A stretch of 4,609 bases of DNA from a virus (taxonomy: Duplodnaviria; Heunggongvirae; Uroviricota; Caudoviricetes). The stretch lies in the IMG/VR virus record IMGVR_UViG_2534681705_000011; one strand, written 5' to 3'. The notes under the pieces were generated by a model. That model was not told the DNA's origin and made no database searches. It was given only the letters and a program-made list of their open reading frames with translations. Below are positions 3,427-4,609 of the stretch, piece by piece (positions within the stretch are counted from its first letter, which is position 1; every line of letters begins with the position of its first letter). The position numbers and the translations under genes were made by a program.

Positions 3427-4038
3427 ATGGCTAATACTGTAAAAATATCCAGTTGTGAGTTAATCAACGCTGATTGCCTGGAATTTATCCAGACCTTACC
3501 GGAAAATTCTGTCGATCTGATAGTCACAGACCCGCCATACTTTAAAGTGAAGCCCGAGGGCTGGGATAACCAGTGGAAGGGCGACGATGATTACCTGAAA
3601 TGGCTGGACCGGTGTCTGGCGCAGTTCTGGCGGGTACTGAAGCCCGCAGGAAGTCTTTACCTGTTCTGTGGTCATCGCCTGGCATCTGATATCGAAATCA
3701 TGATGCGTGAACGCTTTAATGTGCTGAACCACATTATCTGGGCGAAGCCGTCCGGACGCTGGAACGGATGCAATAAGGAAAGCCTGCGGGCGTATTTCCC
3801 GGCAACAGAACGCATTCTGTTTGCAGAACATTATCAGGGGCCATACCAGCCCAAAAATGACGGCTATGCGGCAAAGGGGTGCGAGCTAAAACAGCACGTC
3901 ATGGCCCCGCTGATTTCTTACTTTCGTGATGCGCGTGAATCACTGGGAATAACGTCAAAACAGATAGCGGAAGCCACCGGAAAGAAAAACATGGCTTCTG
4001 GTTTGGACCAGTCAGTGGCAATTACCGAACGAGGGTGA
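3427..4038 (+). CDS. N6-adenine DNA methyltransferase (beta class), N-terminal part carrying motif IV DPPY; reading frame interrupted
   Basis: DPPY at residues 35-38 (nt 3529-3540) within DLIVTDPPYF, followed by an HTH-like segment LGITSKQIAEATG. The frame ends at TGA 4036-4038 while the rest of the enzyme continues in the +1 frame. Confidence 0.8.
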   Translation: MANTVKISSCELINADCLEFIQTLPENSVDLIVTDPPYFKVKPEGWDNQWKGDDDYLKWLDRCLAQFWRVLKPAGSLYLFCGHRLASDIEIMMRERFNVLNHIIWAKPSGRWNGCNKESLRAYFPATERILFAEHYQGPYQPKNDGYAAKGCELKQHVMAPLISYFRDARESLGITSKQIAEATGKKNMASGLDQSVAITERG

Positions 4039-4048
4039 TTACAACAAA

Positions 4049-4471
4049 TTGCAGGCGTTGTTTGCGCGTGTTGCGGCAGAAAAGCATCAGCGAGGGGAAC
4101 TGGAAAAGCCACACCACCAGCTGGTCAGCACATACAGTGAACTGAACCGGCAATATGCCAGCCTGCTGGAAGAGTACAAATCCCTGCGGCGTTATTTTTC
4201 CGTATCGGCTGCCGTTCCGTATACGGATGTCTGGACGCATAAATCCGTGCAGTTTTATCCGGGCAAACATCCCTGTGAAAAACCGGCAGATATGTTGCGG
4301 CAGATAATTGAGGCCAGCAGTCACCCTGGTGATTTGGTTGCGGATTTTTTTATGGGTTCAGGTTCAACGGTAAAAGCGGCGATGGCACTGGGGCGTTGTG
4401 CGATTGGTGTTGAGCTGGAGACCGGACGTTTTGAACAGACAGTCAGGGAAGTTCAGGATTTAATCGTTTGA
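4049..4471 (+). CDS. N6-adenine DNA methyltransferase, C-terminal part (AdoMet-binding motif I); continuation of the preceding ORF in the +1 frame
   Basis: Contains HPCEKP and DFFMGSGST (FxGxG-type motif I), as in beta-class MTases such as YhdJ (recalled). This frame is open from 3968 (after TAG 3965-3967). The ORF-track start at 4049 is TTG; the first in-frame ATG is far downstream. Confidence 0.75.
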   Translation: MQALFARVAAEKHQRGELEKPHHQLVSTYSELNRQYASLLEEYKSLRRYFSVSAAVPYTDVWTHKSVQFYPGKHPCEKPADMLRQIIEASSHPGDLVADFFMGSGSTVKAAMALGRCAIGVELETGRFEQTVREVQDLIV

Positions 4472-4482
4472 AACGGATGAGA

Positions 4483-4511
4483 TTGCAGAATTAATTACGC
4501 ACCATTATTAT
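4483..4511 (+). promoter_or_regulatory. Candidate sigma-70 promoter for the tRNA gene
   Basis: TTGCAG (4483-4488), 17-nt spacer, TATTAT (4506-4511), then the GC-rich discriminator CTGCTCCC immediately before the tRNA 5' end at 4521, typical of stable-RNA promoters. Confidence 0.4.
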
Positions 4512-4520
4512 TCTGCTCCC

Positions 4521-4596
4521 GGCCCTTTAGCTCAGTGGTGAGAGCGAGCGACTCATAATCGCCAGGTCGCTGGTTCAAATCCAGCAAGGGCCACCA
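4521..4596 (+). tRNA. ileZ: tRNA-Ile2 (anticodon CAU, lysidine-modified type; ileX/ileZ-like), CCA encoded
   Basis: Cloverleaf built by hand: acceptor GGCCCTT/AAGGGCC, D-arm GCTC...GAGC, anticodon loop CTCATAA (CAT at 4554-4556), T-arm GCTGG-TTCAAAT-CCAGC, discriminator A then CCA. Very close to E. coli ileX as recalled. tRNAscan would probably report it as Met/Ile(CAT). Confidence 0.88.
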
Positions 4597-4609
4597 TCAC
4601 ATACCGCCA

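Follow-up and report, generated by a model that had tools for sequence, protein, structure and literature searches.

The tRNA gene cluster ileZ-argN-argO, known from Shiga toxin (Stx) phages, was reportedly first described in phage 933W. It is shown in the deposited annotations AP012536, AP012534 and NC_002695, and Fig. 5 of PMC3491183 gives a gene order of rusA, Q, methylase, tRNA genes, stxAB and lysis genes. Here we examine a stretch of 4,609 nt, hereafter the window, which constitutes the entire 4609-bp contig APXP01000122.1 of the draft assembly GCA_000356425.2 and stops shortly after a tRNA gene with a CAU anticodon. A sequence-only reading of the window had interpreted this end as a tRNA-Ile gene preceded by its own promoter, marking the entry into a prophage tRNA island. 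Our analysis supports this view: the gene at 4521-4596 is very probably a prophage ileZ, encoding tRNA-Ile2, and the first gene of an ileZ-argN-argO-type cluster located between the antiterminator gene Q, often accompanied by a methylase gene, and the cargo or lysis genes.

Results

A tRNA gene at the right end of the window

The elements discussed below are the following; related loci are designated by L numbers, L004-L007 being the closest relatives of the window.

4483-4488, + strand: putative -35 element TTGCAG, read from the sequence, 3/6 to consensus
4506-4511, + strand: putative -10 element TATTAT, 17 nt past the -35 element, 5/6 to consensus
4512-4520, + strand: discriminator or short leader TCTGCTCCC, 9 nt; transcription would start here or at tRNA position 1
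4521-4596, + strand: tRNA-Ile2 gene of ileZ type, 76 nt (ARAGORN, Rfam); anticodon CAU at 4554-4556, CCA at 4594-4596
4597-4603, + strand: spacer TCACATA between ileZ and the next tRNA gene, 7 nt, identical in L002 and L007
4604-4609, + strand: CCGCCA, first 6 nt of an argN-type gene, placed by alignment and cut by the contig end

The only tRNA that ARAGORN identifies in the window lies at 4521-4596 (plus strand), with CAT at tRNA position 34. Rfam matches RF00005 at 4521-4593 with 72.5 bits, where the gathering score is 29 (E = 4.5e-15), and so places the call far beyond chance. Both programs thus agree with the CAU tRNA that had been proposed at this end from the sequence, and the distance of 13 nt from the gene to the edge is the one given then. 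Across the whole window, the Rfam scan returned no other family up to its gathering score. No open reading frame of at least 40 aa overlaps 4472-4609 on either strand, and the consensus scan left the minus strand of this interval empty. In a pairwise check, all four stems of the cloverleaf are formed apart from one mismatch, A27.C43, which is the uppermost pair of the anticodon stem; the pairs of this stem read A.C, G:C, C:G, G:C and A:U. Both A73 and the 3' CCA are encoded.

tRNA-Ile2 rather than tRNA-Met

We assign this CAU tRNA to tRNA-Ile2 (ileZ), not to tRNA-Met, because it is 100% identical to ileZ, carries the pairs recognized by TilS and is annotated as tRNA-Ile in RefSeq. All 76 of its 76 positions agree with the annotated ileZ of phage Stx2a_1447 (AP012536), and the copy in Sakai prophage Sp5, annotated as ileZ2, has the same 76 nt. 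Among the genes of E. coli K-12, identity is 92.1% to ileY and 89.5% to ileX, against 67.5% to the elongator genes metT/metU and 59.7% to the initiator gene metV. Acceptor pairs 4:69 and 5:68 are C4:G69 and C5:G68 in the window, as in ileX and ileY, whereas metT has U4:A69 and A5:U68; C4:G69 and C5:G68 are described as the major EcTilS identity elements that separate tRNA-Ile2 from tRNA-Met (PMC11947777, citing earlier work). The gene is not of the initiator type either: G1:C72 is paired, with no C1xA72 mismatch, and the bottom of the anticodon stem has no run of three G:C pairs.

Complete E. coli genomes whose match to the last 230 nt of the window is 100% carry the RefSeq label tRNA-Ile on this gene, in the annotated order DNA-methyltransferase, tRNA-Ile, tRNA-Arg. 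A dedicated Ile2 model is included in tRNAscan-SE 2.0 (PMC8450103). The isoleucine identity proposed from the sequence is therefore borne out by the 76/76 match and by the presence of C4:G69 and C5:G68; a methionine identity with TilS determinants absent, which would have spoken against it, is not what we find.

A conserved promoter-like motif upstream of ileZ

Judged from the window alone, the promoter is no better than expected by chance. A different picture emerged when 35 distinct upstream sequences were aligned on the -10 element. The TTG of the -35 element is conserved at 90-100%, and the TTATTAT block is invariant save for one position, itself at 90% or more, with TATCAT in a few exceptions. 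The 17-nt spacing is retained in all variants in ungapped register. Conservation begins exactly at the -35 element: sequences upstream of it are not conserved, and spacer and discriminator differ among variants. In 32 of the 35, 9 nt lie between the -10 element and tRNA position 1. The discriminator is mostly G+C-rich (CCTGCGCCC, TCTGCTCCC), with TATGTTATC and TTTTTGGCTC also observed. Phage 1717 has Q, not a methylase gene, upstream, and its similarity to the window starts at the -35 element.

Further information comes from the Sakai strain, where Sy et al. (PMC7547250) report from differential RNA sequencing (dRNA-seq) a primary start driving these tRNAs; the cultures are described in the same study as lysogenic with a lytic subpopulation. 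Since the motif is conserved over the 35 variants and a start has been published for Sakai, ileZ likely has its own promoter, and the promoter placed at the window edge by the sequence-only reading is supported despite its modest match to consensus; its designation there as stable-RNA-type is tentative, some variants having a discriminator that is not G+C-rich. The 9 nt between the -10 element and the tRNA would then leave the precursor a leader no longer than about 4 nt, and perhaps no leader at all.

What follows ileZ

In L002, L007 and Sakai, argN begins with CCGCCA, the six nucleotides with which the window ends. The ileZ-argN spacer of Sakai consists of the same seven bases with two more before them, and in L002 the annotated tRNA-Arg(UCG) starts 8 nt after ileZ. 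With this argN start and the further tRNAs present in relatives, the window end indeed appears to be the entry to a tRNA island.

The closest relatives, L004-L007 (four NCBI assemblies), are 98.5-98.8% identical to the window across all 4609 nt. After ileZ they carry a decayed argN, tRNA-Arg(UCU), an intrinsic-terminator-like hairpin, a gene of 141 aa, a gene of 50 aa, two holin genes and a GH108 endolysin gene. In the argN-like sequence of these loci (~8100-8190, minus strand) the 3' strand of the acceptor stem and the CCA have been lost, and neither ARAGORN nor Rfam makes a call on it. A scrambled argN anticodon arm is seen in the Stx2e prophage L001 at 11907-11987, where the RefSeq name is tRNA-OTHER. 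The cargo genes of L007, both on the minus strand, are the 141-aa gene at 7422-7847, with a faint TerB match, and the 50-aa gene at 7273-7425, a DUF3927 membrane peptide.

Other relatives differ beyond the cluster. In prophages of enterotoxigenic E. coli with 100% identity to the window in its terminal 230 nt, the holins come immediately after the Ile, Arg(UCG) and Arg(UCU) tRNAs. The Stx2e prophage shows the order DUF968, RusA, Q, methylase, tRNA-Ile, tRNA-OTHER, tRNA-Arg, stx2e, holins, and in Stx2a phages and Sakai Sp5 stx2AB lies past the tRNA cluster. These loci agree with the placement of the island, in the sequence-only reading, between Q and the lysis genes with cargo or a toxin often beyond: related loci run from Q through the methylase and tRNAs to cargo or stx and then holin. 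As to the genes it expected downstream, an argN-like sequence, argO, cargo and lysis genes are all present in L004-L007; the window's own contig ends at this point.

An origin of the window in an Stx prophage was considered; L001 is only ~83-93% identical to it, in aligned pieces only, and the closest relatives are without stx. To judge by these relatives, a non-toxin continuation appears likeliest for the window's genome; stx downstream of the window is possible.

An 8-bp G+C-rich hairpin followed by a T-run is found just 3' of argO, at 2030-2049 in L020 (Sakai Sp5) and at 8009-7990 on the minus strand of L007. Given the likely promoter and this post-argO hairpin, the tRNA cluster looks like a self-contained transcription unit within the late operon.

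Prevalence and variability of ileZ loci

Of 5426 complete E. coli genomes, 3057 contain a match to the last 230 nt of the window. The identity is 99% or higher in at least 301 complete genomes, and 100% in all 20 of the matches listed. For a survey of cluster content we collected loci with a perfect match to the first 43 nt of the tRNA, comprising at least 80 IMG/VR loci together with loci of other relatives. The full 76-nt sequence is identical in 124 of the 132 copies found in this way, and the variants are single changes.

In 124 loci the sequence extended 400 nt or more downstream, and the tRNAs within 600 nt were recorded in each:

Ile, Arg(UCG), Arg(UCU): 63/124 loci
Ile, Arg(UCU): 32/124 loci
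Ile, Lys(UUU), Thr(UGU), Gly(UCC): 14/124 loci
Ile alone: 5/124 loci
Other combinations: 10/124 loci, in one of which the Ile gene is not called by ARAGORN

Counting only loci with a called Ile tRNA, at least one further tRNA is present in 118/124. Where 1.5 kb or more of downstream sequence was available (102 loci), the first recognizable content beyond the cluster was also recorded:

Stx: 12/102 loci
TerB-like gene: 24/102 loci
Holin directly, or DUF3927 then holin: 9/102 loci
Other genes, such as a 658-aa YjhS/SASA-type esterase or a 118-aa protein: 57/102 loci

As a general statement, a tRNA-island entry with variable cargo beyond it is right.

Rare codons in candidate client genes

The sequence-only reading had suggested that a rare-codon tRNA would serve AT-rich acquired genes such as the lipoprotein gene of the window. 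The counts of ATA (Ile) and of AGA plus AGG (Arg) codons are as follows:

stx2A: ATA 15 (47 per 1000 codons); AGA + AGG 8
stx2eA: ATA 16 (50 per 1000 codons); AGA + AGG 10
Lipoprotein gene of the window, 160 codons: ATA 3 (19 per 1000 codons); AGA + AGG 3
DUF968 gene of the window: ATA 6 (17 per 1000 codons); AGA + AGG 1
Intact methylase gene of L007: ATA 5 (14 per 1000 codons); AGA + AGG 1
TerB-like and DUF3927 cargo of L007: ATA 0; AGA + AGG 0

The rare-codon rationale seems reasonable for ATA-rich cargo of the stx type. It finds no specific support in the lipoprotein gene, with 3 ATA in 160 codons: we rejected this gene as a distinctive client of the tRNA, its ATA rate being like that of its DUF968 and methylase neighbours. 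AGA accounts for three of its four Arg codons. Nor is codon supply for adjacent cargo a general rule, because the cargo of L007 is devoid of ATA and AGR codons.

Genomic context and contig ends

The remaining features of the window are the following:

485-1534, + strand: DUF968 gene
1547-1918, + strand: RusA gene
1908-2273, + strand: Q-family antiterminator gene (PF06530, Phage_antitermQ)
2318-2797, - strand: lipoprotein-like gene, AT-rich (34% GC)
2874-2901, + strand: candidate late promoter TTTACA-16 nt-TATGCT, followed at 2936-2958 by a terminator-like hairpin and T-run (consensus scan only)
3427-4471, + strand: N6/N4 DNA methyltransferase gene (PF01555 on both pieces)

The tRNA gene thus lies downstream of Q, with Q and the methylase gene both on the plus strand like the tRNA. 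The layout at 2874-2958 resembles the pR'-tR' type and is a candidate for it, with a predicted function. The segment from 2869 on is common to the window and L001, which carries the same Q family. Between Q and the candidate late promoter, relatives with this Q family have a different gene, similarity resuming at 2869. The lipoprotein-like gene has the appearance of a moron inserted between Q and pR'.

The methyltransferase gene is broken into two frames, 3427-4038 (203 aa) and 4049-4471 (140 aa), because the window lacks 4 nt at ~3999 and 1 nt at ~4007 compared with its 98.8% relative L007, where the gene is intact and encodes 349 aa. The split gene is either a real pseudogene or the product of an error in the draft assembly.

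The left end of the contig falls within the final 43 nt of hokD, with a terminator-like hairpin further in at 112-129. Its right end falls within the tRNA cluster; a single genome can contain the terminal 230 nt at as many as 12 places. With hokD on the left and the tRNA cluster on the right, both ends lie in repeats of lambdoid prophages, and the window edge is most likely an assembly break at the repeated tRNA cluster.

Discussion

A model for ileZ expression and function

We propose that ileZ would be transcribed from its own sigma-70 promoter, TTGCAG/TATTAT, with a leader not exceeding about 4 nt, and that this promoter is probably active already in the lysogen. After induction, Q-modified RNA polymerase may provide additional ileZ transcription from the late promoter through the methylase and tRNA genes. 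Host RNases would trim the precursor and host TilS would turn C34 into lysidine, whereupon IleRS could charge the tRNA with isoleucine for reading of the rare AUA codon. The expected benefit would be a greater decoding capacity for ATA-rich acquired genes, of which stx2A, with its 15 ATA codons, may be the extreme example.

Several observations weigh against this model. The A27.C43 mismatch of the window ileZ occupies a position where host ileX and ileY have G.U. In thermodynamic folding, the minimum free energy structure of the tRNA is not the cloverleaf (-33.5 against -29.0 kcal/mol); we dropped this as an argument against a tRNA, given that host ileX folds likewise and that the covariance-model score is high. 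The cluster is not uniformly maintained, argN having no callable gene in 32/124 loci in which ileZ and argO are present. The cargo adjoining the cluster in the closest relatives has zero ATA and AGR codons. The TTGCAG/TATTAT motif agrees with consensus at 8/12 positions in all, and the consensus scan, which needs 9/12, did not list it as a promoter; we do not accept this miss as disproof, the comparative pattern across variants being clear. Finally, mature tRNA 5' ends that resist Terminator exonuclease (TEX) can mimic primary starts in dRNA-seq.

Alternative explanations

That the gene encodes an elongator methionine tRNA decoding AUG is scarcely credible. ARAGORN does print 'tRNA-Met (cat)' for it, and several deposited phage records label the same gene tRNA-Met, but such labels rest on the anticodon, and that of ARAGORN is uninformative because every CAU tRNA receives it; the sequence is far closer to ileY (92%) than to metT (67.5%), has C4:G69 and C5:G68 at the positions by which EcTilS discriminates, and is called tRNA-Ile by RefSeq in genomes that match the window end exactly. 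We also regard as unlikely a scenario in which ileZ has no promoter and the tRNA derives solely from processing of the Q-dependent late transcript, the motif being fortuitous or conserved for some other reason. Such a scenario would account for a promoter match under the scan threshold and for the location of ileZ in the same orientation as Q and the methylase gene, downstream of both and with no strong terminator between, while dRNA-seq starts at tRNA 5' ends may be artefacts. It fits poorly with a region in which invariance or near-invariance is confined to the -35 TTG and the (T)TATTAT block and the rest varies, with the 9-nt spacing to the tRNA kept in 32/35 variants, with phage 1717, where homology begins at the -35 element behind another upstream gene, and with the primary start reported for these tRNAs (PMC7547250).

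Accepting a tRNA-Ile2 gene with a likely promoter of its own, its role may still be viewed differently. It could be a decaying, functionless relic, kept only as an anchor for homologous recombination between phage modules: argN is decayed in 32/124 loci and scrambled in the Stx2e prophage, the similarity of related prophages breaks at the cluster edges, with tRNA-Gly(UCC) in place of the cluster in L008-L011, the methylase gene of the window is frameshifted, and ileZ itself has the A27.C43 mismatch. Yet 124/132 copies are identical over 76 nt with only single changes in the variants, the cloverleaf scores 72.5 bits, the gene includes its own CCA and conservation extends to the promoter hexamers, and we hold the relic explanation to be very unlikely. 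Alternatively, phage tRNAs might act mainly as replacements that evade tRNA-targeting defences or competitor toxins, rather than as suppliers for rare codons. The tRNAs of some virulent phages are known to have a defence-evading role; here, the six differences between ileZ and ileY are shared by almost every copy, the cargo adjoining the cluster in L004-L007 is without ATA or AGR codons, and cluster composition varies, with a Lys-Thr-Gly version in 14 loci. Against this, we know of no nuclease targeting tRNA-Ile2, and the anticodons CAU (Ile2), UCG and UCU decode triplets seldom used in E. coli and frequent in stx2A, in keeping with codon supply; defence evasion as the main role is highly improbable in our estimate. 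An extended combination is also very improbable, namely that the cluster is a lysogen-active, self-contained unit in the Q-dependent late operon, leaderless or with a leader of at most 4 nt and a terminator after argO, whose tRNAs would be nuclease-resistant or defence-evading replacements (through A27.C43, for example) in addition to providing rare-codon capacity. A prophage ileZ heading an ileZ-argN-argO-type cluster thus remains our preferred interpretation.

Implications and comparison with known systems

For the biology the window brings nothing new: the cluster, its position and a start driving it are known for Stx phages, and the sequence occurs in over half of complete E. coli genomes. 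The practical consequences are of two kinds. In annotation, a CAU tRNA at this position should read tRNA-Ile2 (ileZ), as it is often mislabelled tRNA-Met. In pathogen screening, a contig that ends at ileZ flags possible stx or other cargo on the next contig, and gap closure is justified.

The ileZ genes of 933W, Sakai Sp5 (ileZ2), Stx2a_1447 and Stx2a_F765 are identical to the window over 76 nt. In Stx phages the spacer from ileZ to argN matches that of the window, the upstream promoter spacer is ~90% identical, and ileZ is likewise positioned downstream of Q and of a methylase gene. The closest relatives of the window differ from Stx phages in carrying the TerB-like 141-aa and DUF3927 50-aa genes instead of stx, and in their decayed argN. 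A further difference concerns the methylase gene, which in phages of the 933W/Sp5 type is reduced to a ~120-nt 3' remnant after tR' (L020 1606-1726), followed by the same spacer and ileZ; in Sakai, this remnant and spacer are all that separates the tR' hairpin from ileZ. The arrangement suggests that a Q-pR'-tR' module may have been joined inside the methylase gene of a window-like ancestor.

Alternative clusters, either Ile-Lys-Thr-Gly or Gly alone, occupy the same slot between the methylase and lysis genes; some of them open with an identical ileZ and have other tRNAs downstream. In L008-L011, relatives at 92% identity, there is no ileZ and tRNA-Gly(UCC) stands alone (~8034-8107), the sequences diverging from the window at ~4450.

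Relative to the host genes, K-12 ileX and ileY share with the window the anticodon, acceptor pairs 1-5, stem pairs 28-31:39-42, A73 and the CCA. Six substitutions distinguish it from ileY: one in the D-loop, four at positions 26, 27, 43 and 44, and one in the T-loop, with A27.C43 in place of G27.U43. The window ileZ is prophage-borne and clustered with Arg tRNAs, whereas ileX and ileY are chromosomal. By all these comparisons the feature is an already known one, and this copy does not depart from its family.

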